Origin: Lentisphaerota bacterium
GTDB lineage: Bacteria; Verrucomicrobiota; Lentisphaeria; Victivallales; UBA1829
Length of the DNA: 33,579 nt
Direction: 5' to 3'
Assembly (NCBI GenBank): GCA_015061845.1
Contig: SUVT01000020.1
Location: forward strand, 1-33,579
Under the pieces are notes generated by a model, which was not told the DNA's origin, made no database searches, and saw only the letters and a program-made list of their open reading frames with translations. Numbering within the stretch: position 1 is the stretch's first letter; every line of letters starts with the position of its first letter. The position numbers and the translations under genes are program-made. Of this stretch, positions 3,260 to 33,579 are shown piece by piece.

Positions 3260-4585
3260 ATGTTTAAAGTCGGCTATGCACAGGAAATTATCACACCGCC
3301 TACAGGGGTTGGTCTTGCAGGTTACTTCAACAAACGCCCGAACGAAGGGATGTATGACGATCTTTATGTCAAAGTGATCATGATCGAAGCAAAAGAGAAA
3401 CTTTGCGGTTTCGTTGCCTTCGACCTGACATCCGTTCCTGCTGAAATTTACACAGATCTTGAAAAATTCGTTTCTGAAAAATATGGCAAGGAACTTTACA
3501 ACAACATGATCGTTTCCGCAACCCACACCCATACCGGACCGGAAATCCGTTTCCGCCGTGAAGAGTGGGACGATCGCACCTACTATGCTTATGATCTTGC
3601 TCTGGAAGGTGCAAAACGTGCTATCACCCGTGCAATCATGAACCTGCTCCCCGCTGAAATGGAAGTCGGTTCCGTCTACAACAACCCCTATGCGTTCGTT
3701 CGCAGATATTTTATGAAAAACGGTACCATCGTCACAAATCCCGGCTGGGGCAATCCCGATATCGAAAAACCGGAAAGTGAACTTGACCGTACCATCAGTT
3801 TCCTGAAAATCATCCAGGGCGGAAGAATTGCCGCTTTGATCTGCAACATTGCAAATCATGGCGATACCATCGGCGGAAACATCGTTTCCGGCGACTGGTA
3901 CGGACGTTTCACTCAGGAGATCCAGTACGAACTGAAAACAAGTCTTCCTGTCATTGTTCTTGACGATGCTTCCGGAGACGTGAACCACTTCGACTTCCGT
4001 CAGAAAATCAATCAGACCAGCTTCAAAGAAGCCGTTCGTATCGGACGCGGTTATGCACGGATCATTCTGGATGCTCTCAACGAGACCGAAAAGGTCACAG
4101 AAGAAGACATCATTGTGAAGAATGCTGTCGTTACGATCCCGCACCGTCAGGTCACCGATGAAGAGTATGCAGAAGCAGAACACGTTCTTGCAACAGTTCC
4201 CGATATCAAAATGAATCGTGACCTGGAAAGTCAGGACCTTGCAAACAAGGTTCCGGCTGCACTCCGTCACTTTGCCCAGAGAACCATCGACTGCCGCAAC
4301 AAGAGTGTCCCGTCCCATGACGGAAGAGTTACTTCCATCAGTTTTGGAAAGCAGCTCACCTTTGTCGCTGTTCCCGGCGAACCGTTCAACGGCGTTGCCC
4401 GTGCGATCCGTGAAAAATCAGATGCAAAATACACCTTTGTGGTCTCCCTTTCCCAGTCCATGTCCGGTTATGTTCCCATGCCGGAATGTTTTGAACGGGG
4501 CGGCTATGAAGTTCAGCCCGCAGTCAACTCTGTTGCTCCCAATGCAGCAACAGAACTGATCAAAGCCGCAATGGAAGTCCTCTGA
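3260..4585 (+). CDS. neutral/alkaline ceramidase-family hydrolase (N-terminal catalytic domain only, 441 aa)
   Basis: AAGGAGAA RBS. N-terminus FKVGYAQEIITPPTGVGLAGY and the Zn-site motif SATHTHTGPE resemble bacterial neutral ceramidase (YRIGVGKSDITGE... / AATHTHSGPGG). It is shorter than the ~670-aa ceramidases, so the C-terminal beta-sandwich domain is absent. Confidence 0.55.
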   Translation: MFKVGYAQEIITPPTGVGLAGYFNKRPNEGMYDDLYVKVIMIEAKEKLCGFVAFDLTSVPAEIYTDLEKFVSEKYGKELYNNMIVSATHTHTGPEIRFRREEWDDRTYYAYDLALEGAKRAITRAIMNLLPAEMEVGSVYNNPYAFVRRYFMKNGTIVTNPGWGNPDIEKPESELDRTISFLKIIQGGRIAALICNIANHGDTIGGNIVSGDWYGRFTQEIQYELKTSLPVIVLDDASGDVNHFDFRQKINQTSFKEAVRIGRGYARIILDALNETEKVTEEDIIVKNAVVTIPHRQVTDEEYAEAEHVLATVPDIKMNRDLESQDLANKVPAALRHFAQRTIDCRNKSVPSHDGRVTSISFGKQLTFVAVPGEPFNGVARAIREKSDAKYTFVVSLSQSMSGYVPMPECFERGGYEVQPAVNSVAPNAATELIKAAMEVL

Positions 4586-7720
<3,135 letters not shown>

Positions 7721-9915: not shown

Positions 9916-11484
9916 TCAATCTGAACTTTTTTCTTCCTGAATGACCCCGTTCAGCCGGGGTGCAAGTTTCGGGAAATTCTTCATGACCATCAACACGATC
10001 TCGCGTTTCATTGTTCCAAAGGGCGGAAGATGCATTCTTTCGACATCCTTGAACGAACGTGAATAGCGATCATGAGCCATCTGAGCAAGTTTCAAATGAG
10101 CTTCTCCTGCAGCGCTGTCATCATACGCAATATAAATCGCCGCAGTGTAAATCAAACCGCTGATCAGGTCATGGGCCTGCTTATAGGAACCATCCTTCAT
10201 ATCTTCTTCCCACTGGGAAACAATAAACTGTTCAAAGTTCAGGAACCGTTTATCATAGGAAACGCGTTCTTTCCGCATGATATTAAAGTATTCCCGTGCC
10301 TTCTTCTCCCTTCCGTAAGAATAAAGAATAACAATCGCATCGATCATATAGTTATCTAATGCACTCTTGAAAGAATGGGCGAAGTCATTGCGTTCAGCTG
10401 CAAGCAGGAATGATTCGCGGACTGCATCAGCCAGTTCCAGGTTCGGAACCATGATAAAGTCCTCACTGGGTGTTTTTTCCGGGAAGAGCATCCGTCCGCC
10501 AATGAAAGACTCTTTCAGGGACTGGGTGATCATACGGTCACATTCAATACTGAAACGGTTGGGACTGTACATGTTGCCAAGAGTTGCCCAGTAGATTGCA
10601 TGGGACTCAGAGGCACGCCAGTCAAGCTTGCCATACTTCTTATTGATCTCTATCACTACTTCCGGACGGATTTTATAATGGTCTCTGAGCCAGATCGCAC
10701 GCAGGAATGTTTCCAGTTCCAACGCCTCTTCATCAGACAAAGCCTCTTTCAAAGACTCAGGAAGCTGTCCAGTTTTCCGGAATGCACGGTTCAAAGATTC
10801 ATCGTCCCGATAACCGGCAGACTGAATTTTGTTCCAGAAAGAATTGGAAGAGTTCTTTCTGCGGAACTCAATAAATGACCTGGGAGCATTGTTCAAGGCT
10901 TCCCAATCAGGATCGGGCACACCGCCGAATGCGACCTGCATCTCTTTTGCAATCTGATACTTATAATATTTCTGGGCATCGTCCAGAGTATTTCCCATCT
11001 TGTGCTGATAGATCCACCCGAGCTGCTGATACAGTTTCGGGTCGTTGGCATTATAATTCAAGCCTTCATCACGGATGAGTTCGATCCCCCGCTGCACCCA
11101 TCTCCACCGGTCCTGCTTGTCCTGAAACGTAACTGAAATATTATACGACATATTCCAAGCAAGGAAGGATATCGCACCTGTAAACTTCGGCTGTAATTTT
11201 GTAATCCATGAAGCCAGCTGAACAAGTTCAAAGTATTTGCCTTCTTCCTGCAGAGTTCCGGCACGGAGCCAAAGCAAGTCTGCCAGAATTCCACGGAATC
11301 CACCAAGCGCAACTGTTGTAAATGCGACCATTGGCGGTAAACCTTTGTCATTGACAGCTTCATCGACCAGTTTTTCCTGGGTAATAATTTTATCCATTTT
11401 ATTCTGAATGGAGAGATTGATTCCCAGCAACACTCCGATTACAAGAAGCGCAAGAATCCATATTTTGAATTTTCTGAAACTCAT
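9916..11484 (-). CDS. N-terminally membrane-anchored helical (TPR-like?) hypothetical protein, last gene of the long minus-strand operon
   Basis: Single N-terminal TM (IWILALLVIGVLLGINL). About 500 extracytoplasmic, mostly helical residues with no recognisable catalytic motif. Lies 17 bp downstream of the ABC-2 permease. Confidence 0.45.
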   Translation of the reverse strand: MSFRKFKIWILALLVIGVLLGINLSIQNKMDKIITQEKLVDEAVNDKGLPPMVAFTTVALGGFRGILADLLWLRAGTLQEEGKYFELVQLASWITKLQPKFTGAISFLAWNMSYNISVTFQDKQDRWRWVQRGIELIRDEGLNYNANDPKLYQQLGWIYQHKMGNTLDDAQKYYKYQIAKEMQVAFGGVPDPDWEALNNAPRSFIEFRRKNSSNSFWNKIQSAGYRDDESLNRAFRKTGQLPESLKEALSDEEALELETFLRAIWLRDHYKIRPEVVIEINKKYGKLDWRASESHAIYWATLGNMYSPNRFSIECDRMITQSLKESFIGGRMLFPEKTPSEDFIMVPNLELADAVRESFLLAAERNDFAHSFKSALDNYMIDAIVILYSYGREKKAREYFNIMRKERVSYDKRFLNFEQFIVSQWEEDMKDGSYKQAHDLISGLIYTAAIYIAYDDSAAGEAHLKLAQMAHDRYSRSFKDVERMHLPPFGTMKREIVLMVMKNFPKLAPRLNGVIQEEKSSD

Positions 11485-11501
11485 TGCTGTTATCCTTATC
11501 T

Positions 11502-12989
11502 TTAACGTTTTACGGACGCTATGCCGAATTCACGTTTACTGTATATCCAGATACCAAGCAAGACAAGAGGAAGTCCCTTCAAGACAACTTGATAAAGGAT
11601 CACGGTTCCCATCATGGAAAGTTCAATCAATTCACCGTTCGCCACAAATTCAGACATTGAGAACTTCTGAACCGGAATCACAGCTGTTAAAAGAACCTGA
11701 CCGAAAATATATCCATACCGATCCATTGCCGGCATTGCGGCAACAGAATCATAATTCTTGATCGGGCTTTGGAGATACAGAGAAAACGCTCCATAAGCAA
11801 TATAACAAAGTGTAAAGAATATTGCGGTAGGCATGGAAAGGAAAGAAGCTGCTGAGAATGCAATCATGGTCACTACAAAAACACCGAGCCATTCCATAAA
11901 CACTGCACGGAGATAGTTATTGAAGAAACTGACCTCCTTGATCATAAGCTTCGGACCATCCTCCAACCGGAACTGAACAGGTTTTTGTGTAAGGTTGGTA
12001 AAGGTTACTTCCGCTTTTTTATCATGGATCATACGACCATCCGCATATTCAGACGGAAATTCCAGTTCATTTACAGATACGGTGAGATATTCCCCGATAC
12101 CATGATTCAGATAAGCGGCTCTGTAATCTTTCTTCGCATCTTGTCCGCTGCTATCCTTTGCCACATCGGATTTTACTTCAAAATGGTACAAACCGCCCCA
12201 GGCACCACTAACCCGTTCAGCAGTCTGAGATGTACTGTCGGTATAAATCCGGTAACGGATATAGAAGCTGCCTTTATAATCTTTCGGCAGATTTTCATAT
12301 ATCCAACGACGGGTGAGACCGGGTTTCACTTCAGAAAGACCGGCATAAACCTGCCGCTGGATTTCAGTCAGGATTTTCTTCTTCTGCTCTTCAGTATAAA
12401 CGTTATGAACAGGTTTTCCATCCGGACCTCTCTTTGCCATTTCTTCTTCATACCGCTTCTGTACCAAACCATTGATATCCGGAGCTTTCGGCATATAAAC
12501 GCGTCGTCCGGTCAGAAGTTCATTACTGATTTTATCCTGCTCGCGGCGGGCATTGGCAACCTCTTCCTTATTCTCCTTATCGGACACAATACCAGCCTTC
12601 TTGTACTGCCAGTTCACAAACCCATAGACAGCAAGAGAAGAAAGGAGAAGCAGAACGGTAAGAAGAAGCATGACTCCGGAAAATTTTCCGAGCCAGATAA
12701 CCGGTCTGGAAACCGGCTTGACCGCTATCATGTGAATCCGGTTATCTTCCAAATCCTGAGTCATCATCTGACACCCCAGCCAGATACCGGAAAGCATAAG
12801 CATCAATGAAATAAAGGAAAGACTGTATTCCAGAGAGACTTTGATAAATCCATAGGCAGAACCATCGCCTTTGATCGTGTTGGGGATAATAAGAATTCCC
12901 AGCAAGAGAATGACCAGCAAAAACTGAAACACATGAGAACGCAATGCGCCCCTGCATGTCAGCTTTACAATTGAGAAGTATGCAGACAT
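11502..12989 (-). CDS. ABC-2 family permease with a ~230-aa extracytoplasmic loop
   Basis: Three N-terminal and four C-terminal TM helices flank a large soluble loop. Lies 17 bp downstream of an ABC ATPase. Confidence 0.6.
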   Translation of the reverse strand: MSAYFSIVKLTCRGALRSHVFQFLLVILLLGILIIPNTIKGDGSAYGFIKVSLEYSLSFISLMLMLSGIWLGCQMMTQDLEDNRIHMIAVKPVSRPVIWLGKFSGVMLLLTVLLLLSSLAVYGFVNWQYKKAGIVSDKENKEEVANARREQDKISNELLTGRRVYMPKAPDINGLVQKRYEEEMAKRGPDGKPVHNVYTEEQKKKILTEIQRQVYAGLSEVKPGLTRRWIYENLPKDYKGSFYIRYRIYTDSTSQTAERVSGAWGGLYHFEVKSDVAKDSSGQDAKKDYRAAYLNHGIGEYLTVSVNELEFPSEYADGRMIHDKKAEVTFTNLTQKPVQFRLEDGPKLMIKEVSFFNNYLRAVFMEWLGVFVVTMIAFSAASFLSMPTAIFFTLCYIAYGAFSLYLQSPIKNYDSVAAMPAMDRYGYIFGQVLLTAVIPVQKFSMSEFVANGELIELSMMGTVILYQVVLKGLPLVLLGIWIYSKREFGIASVKR

Positions 12990-13006
12990 ACTGATCCTCC
13001 TACCGG

Positions 13007-14155
13007 TTATTTCTTATCGTCACTGGAGAACAGATCGGAAAGTTTCTTGTTGGCTTCGTCCAACTGCTGCTGTACAGCTTCATCGACAGGAGTTTCCGGA
13101 ACTTCTTCTTTTTCTTCCAGATCACTCAACATCTTCTGACTCTGCTCTGTCAAAACAGGAGCTGTCGGTTCAGGGACTTCTTCCACCGGTTCAGGTTCAA
13201 CTCCGGCAAGCCGGTCAAGTTTTGCCTTGCCTGTTTCAGAAATATCGCCATCAACGAGATAACTTGCGATTTCACCGCCGGAAGTTGCTCCGGAAGTAGA
13301 AATGCTTTCTTTCTTAGCATCATCCACAACATTGAGGAAGAAGTCTTCCAGCGTACGATGCGGGTGATCAATGGTAATTTCAGCATCTGTATTTTCGCGG
13401 ATAACAGCCTGAATTTTTTCCATGGCTTCCGGCGGAAGATCAGGAATGGTGATCCGGCTGGAAGTTTTCACGGAAAGCAGTTCTTCCATGGAACCTTCTG
13501 CACGGATCTTACCTCCGTAAAGAATGATCACACGGTCACAAACATCTTCCACATCGCTGAGAAGGTGACTTGTCACAAGGACAGTTTTTCCTCTGCGTTT
13601 CAGAAGAAGGATCAGATCTTTCACTTCACGGCAACCGATCGGGTCAAGTCCGCTGGTAGGTTCGTCCAGAATCAGAAACGCAGGGTCATTGATCATTGCC
13701 TGAGCAAGTCCGATACGGCGAGCCATACCTTTGGAAAACTCTCCGACCCGGCGGTTTGCAGCATGAGAGAGCCCAACCATGTCGAGCAGCTGCTCTGTAC
13801 GGGTTTTACGTTCCTTGGCGGAAAGTCCGAACAGAGAACCGAAGAAATCCAGTGTTTCGTAAGCTGTAAGATACTTGTAAAGATACGTTTCTTCAGGAAG
13901 ATAACCGATCATCCGTTTTGCATCAACACTGCGGGGAGATGTTCCGAAAACGCTCAAACGTCCACCTGTGGGGTAAAGCAGACCAAGCAGCATCTTCACT
14001 GTGGTGGATTTCCCGGATCCGTTCGGACCGAGAAGACCAAGGACTTCGCCCTCTCTGACTTCAAAATCAATATCATTGACGGCTTTAGCTTTGGGGCGGT
14101 TCCAGAAATCACGGAACTCTTTGACAAGTCCGACTGCTTCAACTACATTTGCCAT
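13007..14155 (-). CDS. ABC transporter ATP-binding protein with an acidic Pro/Glu-rich ~150-aa C-terminal tail
   Basis: Walker A GPNGSGKST, signature FSKGMARR, Walker B LILDEPTSGLD, H-loop TSHLL. The tail contains EPEPVEEVPEPTAPV...EEKEEVPETPVDE. GGAG RBS about 9 nt upstream, 26 bp after the P-type ATPase stop. Confidence 0.85.
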   Translation of the reverse strand: MANVVEAVGLVKEFRDFWNRPKAKAVNDIDFEVREGEVLGLLGPNGSGKSTTVKMLLGLLYPTGGRLSVFGTSPRSVDAKRMIGYLPEETYLYKYLTAYETLDFFGSLFGLSAKERKTRTEQLLDMVGLSHAANRRVGEFSKGMARRIGLAQAMINDPAFLILDEPTSGLDPIGCREVKDLILLLKRRGKTVLVTSHLLSDVEDVCDRVIILYGGKIRAEGSMEELLSVKTSSRITIPDLPPEAMEKIQAVIRENTDAEITIDHPHRTLEDFFLNVVDDAKKESISTSGATSGGEIASYLVDGDISETGKAKLDRLAGVEPEPVEEVPEPTAPVLTEQSQKMLSDLEEKEEVPETPVDEAVQQQLDEANKKLSDLFSSDDKK

Positions 14156-14181
14156 TTTCAGTTATACTCCACGGATAAATA

Positions 14182-16131
14182 TTATTTGGTCTGTTCCTGC
14201 TGCGATTCTGCAAGCGTGATATTCTCGCCTGTACGGACAAGACGTGCACTGTTAAAGATGACGATCAATGTACTGACCGTATGGAAAATTGCCGCAACAA
14301 CAGGGGTCAATTCTCCAAAGACAGACAGGATGATACCGCCGACGACGAAAATCATACCGAACGCAAGGTTCTGGCTGATCACTGAAGACATCTTCTTGGA
14401 AAGAGCGATCAACAGGGGAATACGGCGCAAGTCATTGTTCATTAATGCAATGGATGCACTGTTGATTGCAATGTCACTGCCGATTGCACGCATTGCAATA
14501 CTCAGGTTACCGGCAGCAAGCGCAGGAGCATCGTTCACACCATCCCCGACAAATGCAACCAGAGAGTCTTTCTTGACATTTTCAACATATTCCACTTTAC
14601 CTTCCGGCAGGCAGTCGCCCTGGAAATCATCAATACCGAGTGTCTTGGCAACTTCGCTTGCAACTGCAGCACGGTCACCGGTAACCATTGCACACTGACG
14701 GATTCCGGCAGCCTTCAATTCTTTGATCGTTTCAGCTGCTTCCGGACGGATCTTGTCACGGAAACCAAGCATACCCATCAATTTACCATTGCGGGCAATT
14801 CCGACAACACTCATGCCGATCACTTCTGTTTCATCCTGATCGATCACGATTCCCTGCTCAGCCATCCACTTTGTACGACCGACAACACAGGGGGCTCCGC
14901 CAATATTTGCGGTAACACCTTTTCCGTGAACTTCTTCATAATCAGTGCCTTCCGTCACCTTGATACCGACTTCTTTTGCAAGACGGAGGATCGCAAGAGC
15001 GGTCGGGTGGTTACTGCGGGATTCAACAGAGGCTGCAACCAGAAGCAATTCTGCCGGTTCAACACCTTCTACAGGACGGATCTTGGCAACAGCCAATTCA
15101 CCTTCTGTAAGAGTACCGGTTTTGTCAAACACAAATGTCTTGATCTTGGATGCAAGTTCCAGGTGGGTGATGTTCTTGATCAGAATACCGAGACGTGCTG
15201 CTGCAGCAACGGCTGCAACGACAGCGGTCGGAGTTGCAAGAACAACTGCACAGGGACATGCAATAACAAGCAGCGTGATCACACGGTTCATGTCTCCATC
15301 GGAGAACCACCAGGTGAGCATGGCAAGCATCAGGATCGTGGGGGTATAGAACGCTGCATATTTATCAATAAGACGAACGATTGGGCTCTTGCTGGACTCA
15401 GCGGCAAGAATCATTTCTTTCACTTTACCGAGGGTGGTATCATCACCGATCTTGGTGACACGGACTTCGATACCACCGGAAAGGTTCTGGGTACCGGCAT
15501 AAACTTCATCGCCAACAGCCTTATCAACAGGGAGAGATTCCCCGGTAATGGATGCCTGGTTCACCGCACTCTGACCTTCGATGATCTCACCATCGACCGG
15601 GAAGTTTTCACCGGGACGGACACTGATGACATCACCGATAGAAAGTTCAGCAGCTTCCACATCGGTGTAAGTACCGTCAGCATTCTTTTTATGGGCATCG
15701 TGAGGAGTCAACCGGAGGAGTTCTTCGATAGAACGCTGCGCTCCGGAAGCTGTTCTTGTTTCAATGATGATCGTGATCAGCAGGAAGAAAGAAATGATCC
15801 CTGCTTCACGGAATTCCTGTCCGGCAAATGCTGCAAGAATTGCAAGTGCAACGAGTTCATTCATATAAACCCGTCCGACACAAAGGTCTCTGACAGCAGC
15901 AATAAAGATCGGCAATGCCAGAACAATTGCCCCGATCACAGCACTGACTTCAGATGCGAAGGGCTGTTCCGGAAAGAACCATTCCAAAAGGAAAGAGTTC
16001 AAAACCAGGAAACCACCGACCGCAGCGAACGCAGCGCGCCCCATGCTGCGACCATGTCCGCGACCTTCGGACATCAATTCGCCGTTTTTGGCATCTTCTG
16101 TATGGTCATGTCCGCAGATACATACGCTCAT
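14182..16131 (-). CDS. P1B-type heavy-metal-translocating ATPase (CPC motif), no HMA domain, His/Cys-rich N-terminus
   Basis: DKTGTLT phosphorylation site, GDGVNDAPALA, TM CPC motif (IACPCAVVLATP), TGES-like ITGESLP. The N-terminus MSVCICGHDHTED is a short metal-binding tag. The start overlaps the stop of the upstream SPFH gene by 4 nt. Confidence 0.85.
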   Translation of the reverse strand: MSVCICGHDHTEDAKNGELMSEGRGHGRSMGRAAFAAVGGFLVLNSFLLEWFFPEQPFASEVSAVIGAIVLALPIFIAAVRDLCVGRVYMNELVALAILAAFAGQEFREAGIISFFLLITIIIETRTASGAQRSIEELLRLTPHDAHKKNADGTYTDVEAAELSIGDVISVRPGENFPVDGEIIEGQSAVNQASITGESLPVDKAVGDEVYAGTQNLSGGIEVRVTKIGDDTTLGKVKEMILAAESSKSPIVRLIDKYAAFYTPTILMLAMLTWWFSDGDMNRVITLLVIACPCAVVLATPTAVVAAVAAAARLGILIKNITHLELASKIKTFVFDKTGTLTEGELAVAKIRPVEGVEPAELLLVAASVESRSNHPTALAILRLAKEVGIKVTEGTDYEEVHGKGVTANIGGAPCVVGRTKWMAEQGIVIDQDETEVIGMSVVGIARNGKLMGMLGFRDKIRPEAAETIKELKAAGIRQCAMVTGDRAAVASEVAKTLGIDDFQGDCLPEGKVEYVENVKKDSLVAFVGDGVNDAPALAAGNLSIAMRAIGSDIAINSASIALMNNDLRRIPLLIALSKKMSSVISQNLAFGMIFVVGGIILSVFGELTPVVAAIFHTVSTLIVIFNSARLVRTGENITLAESQQEQTK

Positions 16132-17303
16132 TTTGCGGCCTCCTTACTCTTTTGAATAACGTTTTTGTCTGTCTTCGGTTCAGGATTGAGCTTCAGACGG
16201 ATTTCCTGTTTTCCGGATCCCAGAGAATTGACAACAAATTTATCGTTGACCTGTGCAAAGGCATCTGAAACTGCCTGCGTGAAGAGATCTACGATAACAG
16301 AGGACGGATTTTCCTGATACTTCGGCAAAAGCATCTTGAAGTAATTGGCATCGGCAGCCACTTCAGAAACAACTTTTGCACTGTAGTTCTCAGCTTCTGA
16401 AATCAGCACATTCTTTTCTGATTCTGCTGCAGCTTTCTGCTTGGAAGCATAAGCTCTTGCTTTGTCCTCTTCTGATTTTGCTTTTGTTTCAGCAGAAGTG
16501 ACTTCGTTGAACGCATTAATGGTTTGCGGAGGAGGACTCTTCACGCCCAGACTGACCGTCTCGACAGTGATACCGATCTTCAAGTCTGCAATCTGCTTTT
16601 TCACCAAGCGTTCCACTTCCATGCGGTACTCATTGGTTTTCTTGAAGATGATATCATTCACGTCCCACTTTGCAGTGACCTGCAGGACTGCGTTATCCAA
16701 CACATTCCGGAGCAGAGTTTTCGGTCCGCGAGTCCCGATTTCTTCCCCTTTATCATTCTTGAAAACGGTATCCGCTTCAGCCGGGACATCAGGCGTCATG
16801 CAGGTTTCATAATAACGTTTGGGAGCAGAGATTCTGTATGTCATACTCCAGGAGGTATGAATCACGCAGGCATCTGCAGTAATGAGATAACCATCAACGC
16901 CCGGAATCAGGGTTTCACCACCTTGAGGATTATTCTTCCGGTCTGTGATCAATTTTTCATTTGCAGGCATAAAAGTATTGCTTGTAATAGTCTGCGGGGT
17001 TGTCGGAATTTCAATGATCTTGCTGACGGGGAACGGGAACACCCAGTGCCAATCATCAGTGTAAAGCTCTTTGAATTTACCAAACTGCGTAACGATCACA
17101 GCAGTATCAGGACGGACTGTAAAGAAACCGCTGAACGTAAAGAACCAGATCAGCAGAATCAATATCAAGCTTGAAAGCAGGATAAACACCGCCTTCAAAC
17201 TCTTGACAAGCATATCCATTCCGGATGAAAAAACGCCATCACCCGAAACGTTTGTTGCTTCTGTCAATTCTTTATTTTCATTTTCCATTGTAGAATTCTC
17301 CAT
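16128..17303 (-). CDS. SPFH/band-7 protein, HflK-like
   Basis: N-terminal TM, SPFH core (TVRPDTAVIVTQFGKF...), C-terminal coiled coil rich in A/E/K. GGAG RBS. Lies 8 bp after the previous SPFH gene. Its stop overlaps the ATPase start. Confidence 0.7.
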   Translation of the reverse strand: MENSTMENENKELTEATNVSGDGVFSSGMDMLVKSLKAVFILLSSLILILLIWFFTFSGFFTVRPDTAVIVTQFGKFKELYTDDWHWVFPFPVSKIIEIPTTPQTITSNTFMPANEKLITDRKNNPQGGETLIPGVDGYLITADACVIHTSWSMTYRISAPKRYYETCMTPDVPAEADTVFKNDKGEEIGTRGPKTLLRNVLDNAVLQVTAKWDVNDIIFKKTNEYRMEVERLVKKQIADLKIGITVETVSLGVKSPPPQTINAFNEVTSAETKAKSEEDKARAYASKQKAAAESEKNVLISEAENYSAKVVSEVAADANYFKMLLPKYQENPSSVIVDLFTQAVSDAFAQVNDKFVVNSLGSGKQEIRLKLNPEPKTDKNVIQKSKEAAK

Positions 17304-26982: not shown

Positions 26983-27066
26983 CTCAAACCTCCTTTTTCA
27001 ACTTGATTTTCTATATGACCTGATAAAATAATTAAAAAAAACATTTATAATTTTTCAAGTCTTTCA

Positions 27067-27095
27067 TTGACTTTTATGATAAACATGTATATATT
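27067..27095 (+). promoter_or_regulatory. putative sigma70 promoter for the ECF sigma factor gene
   Basis: TTGACT (27067-27072), 17-nt spacer, TATATT (27090-27095), about 30 nt upstream of the AGAGGGA RBS and the TTG start at 27134. Confidence 0.3.
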
Positions 27096-27133
27096 TAGCC
27101 GGAATATTTCTCATAGAAAGAAAAGAGGGAAAC

Positions 27134-27730
27134 TTGAAACGCAGTTTGACGACAGACAGTAAGTTATTGGGACAGTTGGCAGCTGAAGATGAGCAGGCAT
27201 GGAGCGAATTCCATTCAAAATACAGAAAAATGATCTGTTCTATCGGTAAAAAACGCGGTATTTCTCCCGATGAGACGGAAGATCTTATTCAGGAAGTTAT
27301 GCTGATTTGCTGCCGACGGATCAAGGAATTTACATACGACAGGGAGAAAGGACATTTCCGTTCCTATCTTACAGCAATTATACATAATGTGTCGTGGCAG
27401 CTGCAGCGTAAAAGAAAAAATCCGCCTCCGGTGGATACGGAATATGATGACAGTATCGATAAACTTTTCATGGAGCAGTATGAAAAGTTTCTGATCAATG
27501 CCCTTATGAAAAAGCTGAAAGAGCGGGTCAACAGTCAAACCTTTTCAACTTTTGAAATGCTTTATATCCAGCAGCTTCCGGTAGAGGAGGTCTGTAAAAT
27601 CACAAGAAAAAGCCCCGGTGCGGTCTACCTGATCAAAATGAGATGCCTGCGAATCCTGCGTCAATGTATCGCAGAAATCCCGGAAGCAGCCGACCGGCTC
27701 GGAAGAGATAACTCCAGCAAAAATGCCTGA
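27134..27730 (+). CDS. ECF-type RNA polymerase sigma factor (sigma-70 regions 2 and 4)
   Basis: Region 2 DLIQEVMLICCRRIKEF...FRSYLTAIIHNVSWQLQRKR and region 4 HTH LPVEEVCKITRKSPGAVYLIKMRCLRILRQ. Likely a TTG start preceded by an AGAGGGA RBS. Its 3' end overlaps the convergent kinase gene by 70 nt. Confidence 0.7.
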   Translation: MKRSLTTDSKLLGQLAAEDEQAWSEFHSKYRKMICSIGKKRGISPDETEDLIQEVMLICCRRIKEFTYDREKGHFRSYLTAIIHNVSWQLQRKRKNPPPVDTEYDDSIDKLFMEQYEKFLINALMKKLKERVNSQTFSTFEMLYIQQLPVEEVCKITRKSPGAVYLIKMRCLRILRQCIAEIPEAADRLGRDNSSKNA

Positions 27731-30558
27731 CTGATCTGCAGAGCGCAATATTCTCCGTCCACCAGACCGATTGAGGCAGAGTGCAGGCTGTTCCGGTAAA
27801 CAGTTCCTTTGAGTTCCAATGAAGAATCAAATTTTGATCCATCGGAGAAAACCCATTTATCATATCTCCAAGTACCGCCAAGCATGATATTTTTCTCTTT
27901 CCAGGGAGTTAATTCTTTCCGGAACAAAGCCTGCAATTCCGGAGTTTTCGGCTCTGCCAGTTTTCCGCCAAGCAGTTCTGCGACCCGGCGCAGCACATGG
28001 TTGTGAGTTCTGTACGGGAATAGAACATAAAGTTTTCCCTTGTGTTCAAAGGAATGGAGAACCGCCGGATGTTTTCGGATCCGTTCGGGATTTTTCCGGT
28101 TCTTATACTCGTCTGCGGTCCACTGGCAGATCGCCCCCGTGGCATCCGCCCGCTTGAAACACTGGATGCGTCCGCCAAGAAATACCAGACACCACCGTTT
28201 GAAATTCGGGAAAGGCGGAAGAGGAAAGCCGGTGTAAGGTTTTCCATCCGGACGCCGCCATTTTCCATCTGCAAAGAAGCCGTCTATATTAACATGAAAA
28301 CTGTTGGTTTCAAAAAATTTATTTTGCAGCTTCTTCAGAAGCTCTCCGGACTCCGGAACAAAGAGCCTGCCGCCAAGGAAGGAACAGATCTGACGGGCAG
28401 AATCCTGTCTGATCGAGGATTCATTACTTGTCAATACTTCATATATTTTCCCTTCATGATCAAGCTGACGGGATCCATGTGTCCAAAGGTGTTTTTCAAA
28501 GAACTCCATCGAACCGGGAGCAACAACGATCCGGCTTCCGACGTAAGGCGGCAGAAATTGATACTTCAAGTAAAGGGAATGTTTTTCCGGATCTACGGAG
28601 TTGCTGTTATACCATCCGCCGCTGATCCGGGCGCAATAATCATCCGGTTTCGCGGAATCTGCCATTGTGATTTCCATTACATTGCCCGCCATATCATAGA
28701 TCCCAAGATTATTCGGGAGCCCGGATGACACCGGATGGATATACCCTTTGGATTCTTTTTTCAACAATTTTGTGGGCGTTCCTTCTCCAGCCCAGGCACC
28801 ACGGTAAACCCACTCCCATTCACTGGTCTGCATCGGACGGAATATAAAACCATCCGGCAGCCGTCCCTGTTGTCTCATAATGATCGTCAATTCCCGGCAA
28901 TAACTTAAAAGATCGTTCCATGTGAACTTGGTCATTGGCAAATCAGGATGCGCTGAAGTCATGGGCATTTTCAGAACGCCGGTAAAATGATCCATGCGGA
29001 TCTCTCCATCATTACACCAGAAAGCGTTCTTGATCCGGACGATTTTTCCTTTTTTATTGCGATAAGATCCTGCGGGGACATAAACGAATTTAAAACGGAG
29101 GCTTGCCTCTGTCAAAAAATCTTTTTCCGGTTGAAGATTTCTGTCTGAAGGATAAATTTTTGTCTCAAGAGACTTCAATTTTTTCATTACCTTGGATTTT
29201 TTCTCCTCTGCGATCCATTTTCCCAACGGAGAGAGGAACAGACCCCTGACACCGGATGAAATTCTATGGATCTTATCCACATTTCCGCTGATTGGTATTT
29301 CCGGGATCCCCTTTAATGCAATTTCCCGGATCCTGGAATCGATTTTCTTGAGAATTTCCAATCTTTTTTCATAATCCAACGGCAGAGATTTCAACGCTGT
29401 TCTTATTTTTTCAGTTTCCTTTTCTCCTGCGAATGCTGCAATCTGATCAAATAATACAGTTCCATTTTCCTGAATGGATTTTTCCAGAGTTTCACATGCC
29501 TGCAACAACTCCTGCTGACGTTTTTGTTTTTCCTTTTCCGCTTTCAGAGATCGCTCATTTTCCAGTTTCTGAAGTTCCAACTCTTGAGCCATTTCCCGTT
29601 TTTTCTCTTCAAACAGACGTTCCGTTTCCATCTTTTGTTTCTGGATGTAAAAATAGGATCCGCATATTCCGGAAACGAGGAAAAACAACAGAAAAAGGAA
29701 CAAAATCAACATTGCGCCCGGATGTGCAAGCCGCCATTGCAGAAAAGACTCTCTCATCAAATCCAATTTTGTCGGTTTGATCAATGTTTGTGGAAGTGCC
29801 TGAGAGAATTCTTCGACAGAATGAAAGCGGTGTTTCGGGTTATTCTCGCAAACTCTGGTCAAAACCGGCCATAATTGACGTCTGACACTTAAAGGAAGAT
29901 CTGAAGGCAGATAAGGATAACGGGAAGCGGCTTCTCCGGTTACCGCCACATATAAAACCTTTCCCAGAGCATAAATATCCCGTTCGCAGGTATTCAGATT
30001 CAAACCATTGAAACATTCATGCGGAAGATATCCGAGTGTCCCGACAAAAGATACGGTCGCATCTATCTCGCATACCAGCCCCGGATCACATAATTTCGGG
30101 ACATTATCAACAAAAATAATATTTTCCGGCTTGATATCCCGATGGATCAGGTCTGATTTATGCAGAACATCCAAACCGGAAGCCAGAGAGTGAATCATTG
30201 TAAGGGCTTCATCCGGCTGCATTTTCCGGGAGGCAGCCAACACTGCAGACAGTGTTTTCGGAACATATGTTCCGCCGGCTTCTTCCAATGGATCCGCTGC
30301 CTCCATGATATAATACAGGAAATCATTTTCCACTCCCGCATGATAAATCTGAATCAGATTCGGACAATCCCTGGCAACCTGAATATATTTCCGGATCCCC
30401 CGAAGCTCACGTTCCGTGTCCGGGATTGAGACGATCTTCAAAGCAACCATCCGGTCAAGCGCATCTTTGGCAAGGTAGACAGTCCCCATGCCGCCGTGAC
30501 CGCACATGGTTATAATGCGGCAGCCTGCAAATATATCACCCTGTTTCAAGTTGATCAT
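27661..30558 (-). CDS. Ser/Thr protein kinase with TM segment, coiled coil, FGE-sulfatase-like domain and two C-type-lectin-like domains (965 aa)
   Basis: Kinase motifs GHGGMGTVY, VALKIV, HRDIKPENI, DPG, GTLGYLPHE. TM helix LILFLFLLFFLVSGICG. Coiled coil rich in E/K/Q. FGE-like domain FKFVYVPAGSY...NNLGIYDMAGNVMEIT...RISGGWYNS with no Cys pair. Two CTLD-like segments (ARQICSFLGGRLFVPESGEL...CQW and VAELLGGKLAEPKT...GEYCALQ). The start overlaps the upstream ABC ATPase stop by 4 nt. Confidence 0.8.
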   Translation of the reverse strand: MINLKQGDIFAGCRIITMCGHGGMGTVYLAKDALDRMVALKIVSIPDTERELRGIRKYIQVARDCPNLIQIYHAGVENDFLYYIMEAADPLEEAGGTYVPKTLSAVLAASRKMQPDEALTMIHSLASGLDVLHKSDLIHRDIKPENIIFVDNVPKLCDPGLVCEIDATVSFVGTLGYLPHECFNGLNLNTCERDIYALGKVLYVAVTGEAASRYPYLPSDLPLSVRRQLWPVLTRVCENNPKHRFHSVEEFSQALPQTLIKPTKLDLMRESFLQWRLAHPGAMLILFLFLLFFLVSGICGSYFYIQKQKMETERLFEEKKREMAQELELQKLENERSLKAEKEKQKRQQELLQACETLEKSIQENGTVLFDQIAAFAGEKETEKIRTALKSLPLDYEKRLEILKKIDSRIREIALKGIPEIPISGNVDKIHRISSGVRGLFLSPLGKWIAEEKKSKVMKKLKSLETKIYPSDRNLQPEKDFLTEASLRFKFVYVPAGSYRNKKGKIVRIKNAFWCNDGEIRMDHFTGVLKMPMTSAHPDLPMTKFTWNDLLSYCRELTIIMRQQGRLPDGFIFRPMQTSEWEWVYRGAWAGEGTPTKLLKKESKGYIHPVSSGLPNNLGIYDMAGNVMEITMADSAKPDDYCARISGGWYNSNSVDPEKHSLYLKYQFLPPYVGSRIVVAPGSMEFFEKHLWTHGSRQLDHEGKIYEVLTSNESSIRQDSARQICSFLGGRLFVPESGELLKKLQNKFFETNSFHVNIDGFFADGKWRRPDGKPYTGFPLPPFPNFKRWCLVFLGGRIQCFKRADATGAICQWTADEYKNRKNPERIRKHPAVLHSFEHKGKLYVLFPYRTHNHVLRRVAELLGGKLAEPKTPELQALFRKELTPWKEKNIMLGGTWRYDKWVFSDGSKFDSSLELKGTVYRNSLHSASIGLVDGEYCALQISQAFLLELSLPSRSAASGISAIH

Positions 30559-31256
30559 CGTTGAAATCTCATCCCTTCGTTAACTCTGTAAATCTCGTGA
30601 AAAAGTCTTTCGGAAAAGATCTCTCCGGGAGCCCCACTCTGATACAGAGAACCATCATTCAAAAACAGAGTTTCATCAAGATACTCTCTCGAAACAAAAA
30701 CATCATGCGTAACCATGATCACACACTTTCCCCCGTTTGCCAGCTCCTTGAGGATACCATAAAAATGATGCTGGTTTCCGATATCCAGAGAACTGAACGG
30801 TTCATCAAGCAGAAGGACAGGAGTATCCTGAACAAGAACCCGTGCCAGCATCACCCGCTGTTTTTCCCCGCCGCTCAAGGTGCTGTAAATCCGGTTCTGT
30901 AAAGGGATCAGATTCAACCGTTCCAGAATCGGCTCGATAGAAAAAGATTTTCCGGATTTCCGCCATGGGTAACGTCCCAGCTCCACAACATCCCGAACCG
31001 TAAGAGGGATCAACTCCGGACATTGCTGCTCCATGAAACCAATCATCCGCGCCCGCTCTTCTGCTGTTTTATAACAGGGAAAAACCGTTCCGCTTTCCGG
31101 TTTGAGTTCCCCGGTGATCAGCCTCAGCAATGTGCTTTTTCCACTGCCGTTTGCACCGAAAACCCCATAGAACTTTCCGGCAGAGAATTGATAACTGAAC
31201 TCTTTCAGGACAGAAGTTTTGCCGTAAGAAAATTGAATATTCTTCAACTCAATCAT
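30555..31256 (-). CDS. ABC importer ATP-binding protein (FecE/FepC/BtuD family)
   Basis: Walker A GANGSGKST, signature LSGGEKQR, Walker B LLLDEPFSSLD, TVRDVVELGRYP typical of iron-chelate/B12 ATPases. The start MIELKNIQF at 31256 overlaps the permease stop, so the longer track ORF reaching 31304 is unlikely. Confidence 0.8.
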   Translation of the reverse strand: MIELKNIQFSYGKTSVLKEFSYQFSAGKFYGVFGANGSGKSTLLRLITGELKPESGTVFPCYKTAEERARMIGFMEQQCPELIPLTVRDVVELGRYPWRKSGKSFSIEPILERLNLIPLQNRIYSTLSGGEKQRVMLARVLVQDTPVLLLDEPFSSLDIGNQHHFYGILKELANGGKCVIMVTHDVFVSREYLDETLFLNDGSLYQSGAPGEIFSERLFHEIYRVNEGMRFQR

Positions 31257-32205
31257 GATGTTTCCTCCGGCGCAAAAGCAGAATAAAGAAGAAAGGTCCG
31301 CCAAAAGCAGAAGTCAGAATTCCAACCGGGATCTCGTGGGGAACATAAATCATTCTTGCCAGAAGATCCGCCAGCAAAAGAAATATTCCGCCGACCAGAA
31401 TCGAAGCCGGAAGAACAGAAGAGAATTTTGACCCGGAAAAACTGCGGACAATATGAGGAACTGCCAAGCCGATAAAACCGATCACGCCGCAGCAGCTGAC
31501 ACAGCTTGCAGTCATCAATGCAATCGCTGTCAGAACGATTGGTTTTACCTTTTTCAAAGGAACACCCGAAAGAGCTGCTCCGCGGTCGCCCAGTAGAAGC
31601 ATATCCATTTCCGTTGAAAATGCGCTGAGAAGACATATTCCTGCCGCAAACGAACAACTGAGCAGAATCACATCGTTCCACCCGGCCCGCCAGAACCCGC
31701 CAAGCATCCAGAAAACAATCGAGGAAAGTCTCTCGTCTGCCAGATAAAGAACGCCGGAAGTCAGCGATGCGGCAAACGCATTCACGGCAACACCGGCAAG
31801 CAGTAATGCTGCACTGTCCCATGCTAAACGTCTGCCCGGAAGAAATATCAAAAGCAATGCGAAAATTGCAAAGAGGAAAGAAAAAATGACAGACGGGATC
31901 GGAAGAAACATTCCGAAAACTGCGCCCAGAGCTGCGGCATAAATCACGCCGAGAACATGAGGAGATGCCAAATCATTCCGGAACAGATTCTGGGCGGCAG
32001 CACCTGATGCGGCAAGCATACCGCCGGTCAGAAATGCTGCGAGCAGACGGGGTAAACGGATCTCCAAAAGAATGGTACGCGCAGATTCCGGTACATCTTG
32101 TCCGGAAAGCAGACGGAACAGGTCGGAATATCCGCACTCCCCTGCCCCTGCTCCCCAGAGCAGGATAAAAAACGGAACGATTGCGATGTACCAGAAATAT
32201 TTCAC
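31249..32205 (-). CDS. FecCD-family ABC permease (BtuC/FepD-like)
   Basis: 318 aa with about 9 TM helices. EIRLPRLLAAFLTGGMLAASGAAAQNLFRN and LTSAFGGPFFFILLLRR are the FecCD hallmark motifs. Confidence 0.8.
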   Translation of the reverse strand: MKYFWYIAIVPFFILLWGAGAGECGYSDLFRLLSGQDVPESARTILLEIRLPRLLAAFLTGGMLAASGAAAQNLFRNDLASPHVLGVIYAAALGAVFGMFLPIPSVIFSFLFAIFALLLIFLPGRRLAWDSAALLLAGVAVNAFAASLTSGVLYLADERLSSIVFWMLGGFWRAGWNDVILLSCSFAAGICLLSAFSTEMDMLLLGDRGAALSGVPLKKVKPIVLTAIALMTASCVSCCGVIGFIGLAVPHIVRSFSGSKFSSVLPASILVGGIFLLLADLLARMIYVPHEIPVGILTSAFGGPFFFILLLRRRKHHD

Positions 32206-32206
32206 G

Positions 32207-32941
32207 TTACACTCCGGCTATGATCTCAACATTGAAACGGTCATCCCGTGCGGTCAAATCCAATGCTTCTTCTGAGGTAAGATGGGATGCTCCGACTTTT
32301 GTCATATAACTGAGACACAACGCTTTGGCTTGTTCCATCTGCTCCACCGTCGGACGCTGATAATCCAATCCGGGAACCGGAATATACCCCATAATGTGAA
32401 ACGGAATATTTTTATCCAGAGACGAGAGATATTTCAGCACGCCTTCCATTTCATCAAGTTCAATCAAGCCGGGGATATAGATCATGCTTGCAGAGAGTTC
32501 CATTCCGGCATCAAAAGCTCTGGAAAAATTATCAAAAATCAATGATTTCGGACGTCCGGTCAGCTTCAGATGCAATTCATCGCTCCATGCTTTGAAGCCG
32601 ATATTTGCGGCATCCAGAAAGGGGATCTGCAAGTTGCTTCCGTTCGTATGACCGAGTTTTGTGTATGCTCCAAGTTCATTTTTTGCGAAGTCGACCATTT
32701 CCTGAAGTTCTTTTGCAACGGTCGGTTCGCCACCCATAAAATAAACTTTTCCGGGTTTGGCATCCAGCAAAGCTGTTTTTTGTTCCTCAACACTCAAAAA
32801 ACGTTCCGGCTTCGGATATGCAAAACCGCTTTTCCCTCCGCGCAATTTATAGCTGCAGAACGGACAATGGAAGGTACATCCCCAGTTGTGGAGAGTGGCG
32901 AAATCATATTTTTTATTCCGGGTGATCCGATAAAAGGACAT
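32207..32941 (-). CDS. small radical SAM protein of unknown function
   Basis: CTFHCPFC (CxxxCxxC) at residues 22-29, then GGEPT. 244 aa. Lies between the binding-protein and permease genes with gaps of 1-2 nt. Confidence 0.65.
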   Translation of the reverse strand: MSFYRITRNKKYDFATLHNWGCTFHCPFCSYKLRGGKSGFAYPKPERFLSVEEQKTALLDAKPGKVYFMGGEPTVAKELQEMVDFAKNELGAYTKLGHTNGSNLQIPFLDAANIGFKAWSDELHLKLTGRPKSLIFDNFSRAFDAGMELSASMIYIPGLIELDEMEGVLKYLSSLDKNIPFHIMGYIPVPGLDYQRPTVEQMEQAKALCLSYMTKVGASHLTSEEALDLTARDDRFNVEIIAGV

Positions 32942-32943
32942 TC

Positions 32944-33579
32944 TTATTTCTCCCTGATAATTTGTTCTCTGAAAAATCTGATTGCTTCCAGCGGTTCGAT
33001 GCCTTCTGTGATCAAACGGCGGGGGACTGCGTGGATCCTGTTATTTTTTACCGCCGGAAACTCTGAAAAGCCCGGACGGTTCCGGATCTCTTCTGCAGAA
33101 GAACTGCCTTCAACATAAAAAATGATCTCCGGCTGATGTTCCAACAGACTTTCTGTACTGATCAAACCGGTCTTTTTATTCAAAACAACACCGCCCGCAT
33201 GAGCAAGCAAATCTCCTGTATAACTCTCTTCACCAACAGATTTCAACGGACCGTAAAGTTCAAAATAAACAGCCTTTTTCTTTTCCGGTTTCGGGATCGC
33301 CGACAGTTCTTTCCGGAATACGGCGCAAAGTTCCTCTGCTCGCTCTTTTTTTCCAGTCAAATCCCCCAGACGGCGAACCAGTGCGGGATAATCCCGGAGA
33401 CGGAAAGGCTGAACTTCCATAACTTGAATTCCTTTCCTGCGAAAATCCTGTGCGGCATCCTGCTGATAAGTCCACAAAATAACGCAATCAATGCCAAGTG
33501 CTGCAATTTTTTCTCTGGAAACTGCGCTTCCTTTTCCAATGACTGCTGGTTCCGGCTTTCCGGCGGCAATTCTTCCATA
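32944..33579 (-). CDS. periplasmic substrate-binding protein of chelate/cobalamin ABC importers (BtuF/FepB cluster A), N-terminus off the window edge
   Basis: Manual translation continues upstream of the track's TTG: ...GRIAAGKPEPAVIGKGSAVSREKIAALGIDCVILWTYQQDAAQDFRRKGIQVMEVQPF...LTGKKERAEEL... This matches the BtuF pattern (PDLVL...G..V.........L..LTG...A). No stop before the window end. Confidence 0.6.
   Translation of the reverse strand, partial: YGRIAAGKPEPAVIGKGSAVSREKIAALGIDCVILWTYQQDAAQDFRRKGIQVMEVQPFRLRDYPALVRRLGDLTGKKERAEELCAVFRKELSAIPKPEKKKAVYFELYGPLKSVGEESYTGDLLAHAGGVVLNKKTGLISTESLLEHQPEIIFYVEGSSSAEEIRNRPGFSEFPAVKNNRIHAVPRRLITEGIEPLEAIRFFREQIIREK

Follow-up and report, generated by a model that had tools for sequence, protein, structure and literature searches.

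Sigma factors of the extracytoplasmic function (ECF) type that are linked to protein kinases are among the least understood branches of bacterial signaling. They include the groups ECF43, ECF59-62, ECF217, ECF267, and ECF283 (PMC7826278), which are mostly planctomycetal (PMC7826278, PMC8999054), and ECF43 is the only group whose mechanism has been tested. ECF43 sigma factors lack the acidic DAED motif in region 2.2, and a phosphothreonine at this site restores the charge for core binding (PMC8999054, PMC13147305); in these pairs the kinase directly phosphorylates and activates its sigma factor (PMC13147305, PMC8999054), with direct phosphorylation demonstrated for EcfP and EcfK (PMC13147305). 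Kinase-linked groups that keep the DAED motif are expected to work otherwise than ECF43 (PMC8999054, PMC7826278). On the side of the kinases, a domain similar to formylglycine-generating enzyme (FGE) ranks third in frequency among the accessory domains of single-pass Ser/Thr kinases in the Planctomycetota (PMC11032199). Here, we analyzed an ECF-type sigma factor gene and an adjacent receptor kinase gene from a gut/rumen-type Lentisphaeria bacterium, at positions 27134-30558 of a 33,579-nt stretch of DNA (contig SUVT01000020.1, Lentisphaerota bacterium, assembly GCA_015061845.1), the whole of which is referred to as the window. We interpret these genes, with moderate confidence, as a two-gene transmembrane signaling module in which the kinase controls the adjacent ECF sigma factor, and in which the overlap between the 3' ends of the two genes is genuine.

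The two genes and the sequence that they share are as follows.

27134..27730, plus strand: ECF-type sigma factor gene (198 aa, TTG start with GAGGG before it; from the list of open reading frames (ORFs), with matches to Sigma70_r2 and TIGR02937)
27661..30558, minus strand: receptor Ser/Thr kinase gene (965 aa, ATG start, N-terminus alignable to all homologues)
27661..27730, both strands: tail-to-tail overlap of the two coding sequences (CDSs), 70 nt, from a two-frame reading

The original prediction, a brief note on this DNA, had placed a sigma factor and a kinase in convergent ORFs with a shared stretch at 27661-27730, and the ORF list agrees with it exactly. The pairing of an ECF sigma factor with a Ser/Thr kinase is likewise borne out, both by Pfam and NCBIfam matches and by its retention in the two gene orders that occur among related loci (see below), and linkage of this kind in the Planctomycetes-Verrucomicrobia-Chlamydiae (PVC) superphylum agrees with the literature (PMC7826278, PMC8999054). 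When the neighborhoods of related loci were compared, the flanking genes varied between clades and the sigma-kinase pair alone was conserved; no anti-sigma gene was found among the genes near the pair in the window. The pair is a genuine kinase-linked ECF module.

The sigma factor consists of sigma2 and sigma4 domains only, as is characteristic of ECF (group 4) proteins, and over aa 22-178 it scores 63.2 bits against the sigma70-ECF model TIGR02937 (cut-off 42.9), in addition to a Sigma70_r2 match (E 9.5e-10).

27215..27418, plus strand: sigma region 2 (aa 28-95; Pfam), with the acidic sigma2.2 motif ETEDLIQE at aa 47-54
27506..27673, plus strand: sigma region 4 (about aa 125-180; from the TIGR02937 span and a weak Sigma70_r4_2 match at aa 138-165)

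None of the specific NCBIfam subfamily cut-offs was reached, including those of the two PVC-specific models, TIGR02989 (32.2 bits vs 124.55) and TIGR02984 (22 vs 183.75). A HMMER scan of 1.84 billion representatives recovered 896 relatives of the sigma factor at E <= 1e-10. Because, in the metagenomic relatives at 23-34% identity, a same-strand kinase gene with a different ectodomain usually lies immediately before or after the sigma gene, the whole sigma family appears to be kinase-linked. The acidic character of sigma2.2 is a family feature, with at least two acidic residues in four positions in 139 of 147 relatives (consensus [DE]x[DE][DE]), and not one of the 147 representatives has Ser or Thr at the position of the ECF43 switch. 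The sigma2.2 phospho-switch of ECF43 can thus be ruled out for this sigma factor, since the acidic motif is kept and the switch residue is missing. Only some 50% of the relatives have Ser or Thr at position 44, where one of them (L006) has Pro. Closer to the N-terminus, a (Y/L)TT(D/K/N/R)S..LL motif at aa 5-12 (27146-27169) is nearly invariant in the clade; it resembles the usual N-terminus of ECF proteins, and its two threonines are possible phospho-acceptors.

The partner gene encodes an N-terminal kinase domain, which is separated from a large ectodomain by one membrane helix and a stalk.

29773..30519, minus strand: Hanks-type kinase domain (about aa 14-262; Pfam Pkinase, E 5e-28)
30079..30087, minus strand: DPG in place of DFG (aa 158-160)
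29650..29718, minus strand: single transmembrane helix (aa 281-303), the sole cluster of hydrophobic 19-mers in the protein
29149..29646, minus strand: charged extracytoplasmic stalk, probably helical (aa 305-470; 28 K+R and 26 D+E within a span of 135 residues)

In an alignment of 33 kinase sequences, residues G20, G22, G25, K41, H139, R140, D141, K143, N146, and D158 are invariant and E51 is nearly so, and the domain has the Gly-rich loop, the VAIK Lys, the alphaC Glu, the HRD loop with its Asn, and the Mg-binding Asp of Hanks-type kinases. The Phe of the DFG motif, part of the regulatory spine, is missing from this set, and DPG is present at aa 158-160 as the original prediction had stated. 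This substitution appears to be a family-wide trait and not a lesion, because it occurs in 48 of the 55 family members and in none of 65 kinase matches from outside the family, which carry DFG or DIG. The kinase is predicted to be active, with an unusual regulatory spine. DIG predominates in the nearest kinases from outside the family (P0056-P0068), and loss of the DFG Phe may extend beyond the DPG family. The charged region that follows the transmembrane helix is about 165 aa long, and no Pfam domain was matched within the stalk (aa 305-470).

Beyond the stalk, the ectodomain is composed of three folded modules: an FGE-fold domain and two C-type-lectin-like domains (CTLDs), located in models from AlphaFold2 (AF2).

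28504..29121, minus strand: FGE-fold domain without catalytic cysteines (aa 480-685; Pfam FGE-sulfatase, AF2, and Foldseek)
28111..28470, minus strand: CTLD1 (aa 697-816; Cys 725, 790, 800, and 811; AF2 and Foldseek)
27703..28059, minus strand: CTLD2 (aa 834-952; its last beta-strand, QAFLLEL at aa 945-951, lies inside the overlap; AF2 and Foldseek)

The first module has a partial match to Pfam FGE-sulfatase (PF03781, E 7e-10). Its closest solved proteins by sequence are the PorK/GldK lipoproteins (E 2e-5), and true FGE is reached only at E 0.2-0.4. For the AF2 model of aa 470-700 (predicted local distance difference test, pLDDT, 89), the Foldseek order is CarF (E 5.5e-11), T. denticola variable protein 1 (Tvp1), PvdO, and PorK, and then human and bacterial FGE (E about 1e-8, template modeling (TM) score 0.6), consistent with an FGE fold. 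An FGE-like domain devoid of cysteines after an (I/V)SGGW motif, and for this reason binding instead of Cys-oxidizing, had been proposed in the original prediction. The fold is upheld by Pfam and by AF2/Foldseek, no cysteine follows ISGGW within the domain or occurs anywhere in aa 643-724 (between C642 and C725), and the binding interpretation is reasonable in light of this gap. The copper-binding Cys pair of FGE, the position of which relative to the GG(S/W) motif we take to be that of C336/C341 in human FGE, cannot be present, because there is no Cys at aa 643-724; the domain appears to lack the Cu(I) site, and with it the catalytic hallmark of FGE. The public name for this family, 'SUMF1/EgtB/PvdO family nonheme iron enzyme,' is probably misleading. 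That kinases with FGE domains occur in the PVC superphylum, as also claimed, is in agreement with the commonness of periplasmic FGE domains in Planctomycetota kinases (PMC11032199).

The prediction of two CTLD modules after the FGE-like domain is confirmed at the level of modeled structure. The AF2 model of aa 680-965 (pLDDT 92, predicted TM score 0.89) has the double-loop alpha/beta architecture of CTLDs, with two helices and paired N- and C-terminal strands. In Foldseek it matches the tandem CTLDs of DEC-205, the mannose receptor (MR), Endo180, and PLA2R over about 280 columns (E 4e-9), as well as the single CTLDs of LOX-1 and NKp80 (TM score 0.72-0.78), with probability 1.00 for MR, DEC-205, Endo180, LOX-1, and NKp80. 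The two modules also resemble each other (E 4e-5, one-to-one BLASTP). Pfam Lectin_C is not matched by the window kinase and is matched by 4 of 33 relatives (best E 4.4e-6). In CTLD1, Cys 725 (alpha1), 790 (beta3), 800, and 811 (beta5) fall in the elements that form the canonical disulfides; CTLD2 has only C938. The EPN/QPD and WND motifs for Ca2+ and sugar binding are absent and not conserved in either CTLD across 33 sequences. The original prediction went further and proposed a sensor of glycans or sulfated glycans, for which there is no direct support: both CTLDs lack these motifs, the closest FGE-fold relatives (CarF, Tvp1, PvdO, and PorK) are not sulfatase-related, and glycan binding is unsupported by the sequence, even with the CTLD fold confirmed by the models. 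A homologue search made with the ectodomain alone returned seven matches, with the known full-length relatives not among them. One of these, P0162 (669 aa, from a Lentisphaeria metagenome-assembled genome, on a 115-kb contig), is 46% identical to the window ectodomain over 97% of it and has no kinase domain recorded; it could be a kinase-less version or the product of a mis-called start.

The tail-to-tail arrangement extends well beyond the window. In 11 related lineages of one Lentisphaeria clade, with kinase identities to the window from 90% down to 32%, the two genes are always convergent; ten have an overlap of 34-83 nt and one has a 36-nt gap.

L004/L005, kinase identity to the window 90%: convergent, 70-nt overlap
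L159, kinase identity 59%: convergent, 73-nt overlap
L006/L007, kinase identity 48%: convergent, 34-nt overlap
L094, L095, and L096, about 46-52% identity (ectodomain): convergent, 34-nt overlap
L160, kinase identity 44%: convergent, 34-nt overlap
L008/L009, kinase identity 34%: convergent, 83-nt overlap
L161, kinase identity 33%: convergent, 47-nt overlap
L010, kinase identity 32%: convergent, 36-nt gap

In four loci with kinases of the same architecture at 27-31% identity (L011, L012, L013, and L162), a gene for a protein of 181-188 aa lies 2-7 nt upstream of the kinase gene on the same strand, and alignments identify its product as a homologue of the window sigma factor. All convergent loci form a single clade in a neighbor-joining kinase tree, with the co-directional loci in the other clade or basal. 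Because of this grouping, and because the distant relatives carry the sigma gene upstream and co-directionally, the simplest history is probably that the sigma gene was relocated and inverted once, in the ancestor of the clade, leaving its place upstream of the kinase gene for the 3' end of that gene. At a further locus (L097, 475-1101), a sigma orthologue of about 57% identity ends in GKSDGGSK and no kinase-ectodomain ORF is found in the 1.2 kb downstream; this lineage may have lost or moved the kinase.

Within the overlap, two segments with distinct histories can be recognized.

27674..27730, plus strand: sigma C-terminal tail AEIPEAADRLGRDNSSKNA and stop (conserved in convergent loci and missing from co-directional relatives; alignments)
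27661..27702, minus strand: C-terminal kinase extension SRSAASGISAIH and stop (lineage-specific, from loss of the ancestral stop; comparison with L006)

Reading both frames of the overlap, the end of the sigma factor (NSSKNA and stop) is antisense to the kinase QAFLLEL strand, and the last 12 kinase codons, SRSAASGISAIH, with their stop are antisense to EIPEAADRL of the sigma tail. In the 34-nt form of the overlap, the kinase ends in AFLLELPLE followed by TGA. A DNA comparison with L006 indicates that in the window lineage a 3-nt indel and substitutions erased this ancestral stop, leaving the kinase frame 12 codons longer, with a new TGA that falls in the sigma codons R-Q-C. The extension is found only in the window and in the relatives P0001 and P0002, and the pLDDT drops to 55 across it. 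The core overlap predates this extension: the sigma stop sits inside the codons of the last beta-strand of CTLD2 (aa 945-951, pLDDT >90). The sequence EIPEAADRI is invariant in L006, L094, L095, and L096, and because only synonymous third-position changes occur in these loci, where this segment is outside the kinase CDS, the sigma tail appears to be translated and under purifying selection at the protein level.

A candidate signal for transcription was identified at the sigma end of the pair.

27067..27095, plus strand: putative promoter of the housekeeping type (TTGACT-17-TATATT), upstream of the sigma gene (consensus match only)

This sigma70-like site is 40-70 nt upstream of the sigma start; it is the same in L004 and takes the form TTGAAA-17-TATATT in L006/L094. 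No ECF-type autoregulatory promoter motif was recognized upstream of the sigma gene. There is no convincing intrinsic terminator after either gene, and the overlap itself hides no bidirectional terminator or RNA structure (z-scores +0.64 and -0.58). Because the coding regions overlap with no terminator between them, both mRNAs would extend into the partner gene, and the two transcripts are predicted to be complementary at their 3' ends, which is the transcript-level arrangement by which a convergent excludon is defined (PMC12288877, PMC7154746).

Taken as a signaling module, the pair could operate as follows. An extracytoplasmic ligand would bind the ectodomain, comprised of the non-catalytic FGE fold and the two CTLDs, and alter kinase activity, with the stalk and the transmembrane helix passing the signal to the cytoplasmic Hanks-type kinase. 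The kinase would then control the ECF-type sigma factor encoded next to it, with direct phosphorylation as the most likely means. Because this sigma factor keeps its acidic sigma2.2 motif, both the phosphorylated site and its logic would differ from the 'charge-completing' switch of ECF43; candidate sites are the linker between sigma2 and sigma4, the N-terminus, or the conserved C-terminal tail. A housekeeping-type promoter for the sigma gene fits such post-translational control, and mRNAs complementary at their 3' ends could additionally couple expression of the sigma factor and the kinase in an excludon-like manner.

Several observations weigh against this scheme. The DPG motif removes the regulatory-spine Phe, and kinase activity is assumed; no conserved phospho-acceptor in or near sigma2.2 occurs across the 147 sigma representatives; the CTLDs are without sugar-binding motifs; and, with the acidic core-binding motif kept, the sigma factor may be intrinsically active, and the kinase could then be an inhibitor, a sequestering partner, or an indirect regulator. 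The overlap shows no extra conservation between the window and L004 (0.086 per nt vs 0.083 in the kinase-only flank, both small numbers; the sigma-only part diverges at 0.172 per nt), and because L010 has a 36-nt gap and overlap length elsewhere ranges over 34-83 nt, the overlap itself may be neutral. Some of these points would suit a membrane-anchored kinase that sequesters an intrinsically active sigma factor, much as an anti-sigma factor would, or that inhibits it by phosphorylation: sigma2.2 remains acidic in 139/147 relatives with Ser or Thr at the ECF43 switch position in 0/147, DPG replaces DFG, no separate anti-sigma gene is present, and the clade-specific sigma tail could be a docking element. 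Either role nevertheless seems unlikely, as no anti-sigma domain is detectable in the kinase with Pfam or NCBIfam, the invariance of all catalytic residues argues for phosphotransfer, and every characterized kinase-ECF pair is an activating one (PMC13147305, PMC8999054). The ectodomain could also be viewed as an enzyme, with formylglycine-generating or other oxidizing activity of the FGE family in place of ligand sensing, given the Pfam FGE-sulfatase match, the NCBI names of relatives, and the presence of PvdO, an oxidizing enzyme, among the best fold matches. We consider this very improbable, as aa 643-724, where the Cu-binding pair would presumably be expected by analogy with human FGE, contain no Cys, and the sequence is closest to the structural protein PorK/GldK. 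Fusion to a receptor kinase behind a transmembrane helix, the usual position of a sensor (PMC11032199), also argues against an enzyme.

With regard to the overlap, a frameshift or assembly artifact at 27661-27730 had been suspected when it was first noted. When two convergent CDSs overlap at length, the cause is often an error of annotation or assembly, here an indel or frameshift by which one gene end would be misplaced, and the final 12 kinase codons are lineage-specific and of low model confidence. To the extent that sequences can show it, this suspicion is refuted and an artifact is hardly credible: 22 contigs, assembled from separate samples in ENA and JGI, encode the exact 965-aa kinase; across 27001-30700, the window and three fetched loci have 100% identity; in the 90%-identity relative, despite about 9-17% divergence at the nucleotide level, neither frame is interrupted and the overlap is again 70 nt; and the 59% relative has an overlap of 73 nt. 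Even without the kinase extension, the sigma stop would sit in the codons of a structurally required CTLD beta-strand. A real pair could still have an overlap that is a by-product of sigma relocation and genome compaction, with no regulatory role, and we give this only slightly less than an even chance. Overlaps of 34, 47, 70, 73, and 83 nt occur, as does a 36-nt gap in one member, the extra 36 nt of the window lineage arose from simple stop-codon loss, there is neither excess conservation relative to the kinase flank nor RNA structure, and much bacterial antisense transcription is regarded as noise (PMC4783119). Against neutrality, the convergent, abutting layout has persisted to 32% kinase identity while all other neighbors changed, the 34-nt form is exactly kept in five loci, and overlapping convergent transcripts can measurably affect each other (PMC12288877). 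A neutral overlap is about as likely as a functional one. A broader proposal, which combines several elements and which we regard as doubtful, is that the conserved coding overlap and the sigma tail are both functional, with the overlap coupling sigma and kinase expression, the tail docking or accepting phosphate, and control being exerted by a route other than that of ECF43. Each gene would be transcribed antisense into the other, with the sigma transcript entering the 3' part of the kinase gene that encodes the sensor, which would tie the sigma:kinase stoichiometry or make expression mutually exclusive (an excludon within a signaling pair), and the tail (EIPEAADRIHS.GSSSKNA), gained with the relocation, would be the element on which the DPG kinase docks or to which it transfers phosphate. 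If true, a functional overlap and tail would define a form of kinase-to-ECF control distinct from the ECF43 charge switch. The persistence of the overlap to about one-third protein identity makes this clade a good natural case for distinguishing regulatory from neutral convergent overlap.

Other genes around the pair differ between lineages. The kinase start overlaps the stop of the upstream ABC ATPase gene by 4 nt (ATGA), and this ABC_tran gene is the last in an apparent operon on the minus strand (30555-33000) that also encodes an N_methyl/SBP_bac_10 protein, Peripla_BP_2, a radical SAM protein, and FecCD; it is unusual for an uptake operon of the FecCD type to contain a radical SAM gene. 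Only the window and the 90% relative have this operon, and in the relative a 20-nt gap precedes the kinase gene. The NMO, FecCD-type ABC, and radical SAM genes were rejected as parts of the module, being shared only with that relative, and an NMO match in L012 is weak (25%) and gives no support for NMO as a module part. In the 34% relative L008, about 0.8 kb upstream of the orthologous sigma gene (12157-17143), there is a second, co-directional pair of a sigma factor (Sigma70_r4_2) and a kinase (with TPR), beside which a separate 365-aa FGE-sulfatase protein is encoded; this second pair suggests that kinase-linked sigma modules have expanded in these genomes. A ceramidase-like gene adjoins a GH2 beta-galactosidase gene in the window (3260-7720), about 20 kb from the module, and in L010 (4756-7835) ceramidase-like and GH123 genes come immediately next to the sigma gene, following a small Nif11-like ORF. 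These neighbors could hint at a context of glycolipid or glycan metabolism, or they could be coincidental. Two adjacent large ORFs of 522 and 495 aa on the minus strand of the window (9916-12989) have no Pfam match at E <= 1e-5.

Among described systems, the ECF43 pairs EcfP-PknT of Vibrio parahaemolyticus and EcfK-PknS of Xanthomonas citri share with the window an ECF sigma factor that adjoins a single-pass Hanks kinase with a variable extracytoplasmic domain, as well as a conserved neighborhood in which the kinase is present and an anti-sigma factor is not. In contrast to the window sigma factor with its ETED sequence, ECF43 sigma factors have no acidic DAED and carry a phospho-Thr (QTTA); moreover, the ECF43 pairs are operonic, whereas the window pair is convergent and overlapping, and the sensor domains are different. 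With its acidic sigma2.2 kept, the family described here must use a mechanism other than that of ECF43, for which the sigma tail and the DPG kinase offer concrete features. More similar in this respect are ECF59, ECF61, ECF62, and ECF217 (Casas-Pastor et al., 2021), which are kinase-associated groups from the PVC superphylum with no anti-sigma factor and a retained DAED-like motif (PMC7826278, PMC8999054); a conserved C-terminal tail and a convergent overlap were not found described for these groups in the literature cited here.

The order of kinase, transmembrane helix, and FGE-like domain is shared with Planctomycetota single-pass kinases that have a periplasmic FGE-sulfatase (SUMF1-like) domain, from which the window protein differs in its two CTLDs after the FGE fold, its stalk, its Lentisphaeria host, and its DPG motif. 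The FGE-fold domain itself is most like the non-catalytic proteins PorK/GldK (of the type IX secretion ring), Tvp1, and CarF, together with PvdO, to which aa 470-700 are closest in sequence and fold and which are also without the FGE Cu-binding Cys pair; these are lipoproteins or soluble periplasmic proteins and not receptor ectodomains, and no function is transferable directly from them. Both CTLDs share their fold with the mannose-receptor family (MR, DEC-205, Endo180, and PLA2R) and with NK-type domains (LOX-1 and NKp80), and the four Cys of CTLD1 fall in the expected structural elements. Identity to these proteins is 12-20%, however, and the window differs from them in the lack of EPN/QPD/WND, the lack of disulfides in CTLD2, and the context of a bacterial receptor kinase. 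With its FGE fold and two CTLDs, this receptor kinase is a case in which bacteria make use of lectin-like folds, and its public annotation is probably in need of correction.

The arrangement of the genes is comparable to convergent excludons (scbA-scbR in Streptomyces, and cases from E. coli and S. aureus), in which convergent neighbors have overlapping 3' transcripts, allowing transcriptional interference and RNase III processing (PMC12288877, PMC7154746, PMC3134472). Here the overlap goes beyond untranslated regions, the CDSs themselves overlapping by 34-83 nt, and the partners belong to one pathway. Every type of component is already known, including kinase-linked ECF sigma factors, FGE-domain receptor kinases in the PVC superphylum (PMC11032199), CTLD folds, and convergent excludons. 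Three features are new: a DPG kinase that carries an FGE-fold domain together with two CTLDs, an ECF family that is linked to kinases, keeps its acidic motif intact, and has a tail specific to one clade, and a tail-to-tail coding overlap that is kept across a clade.

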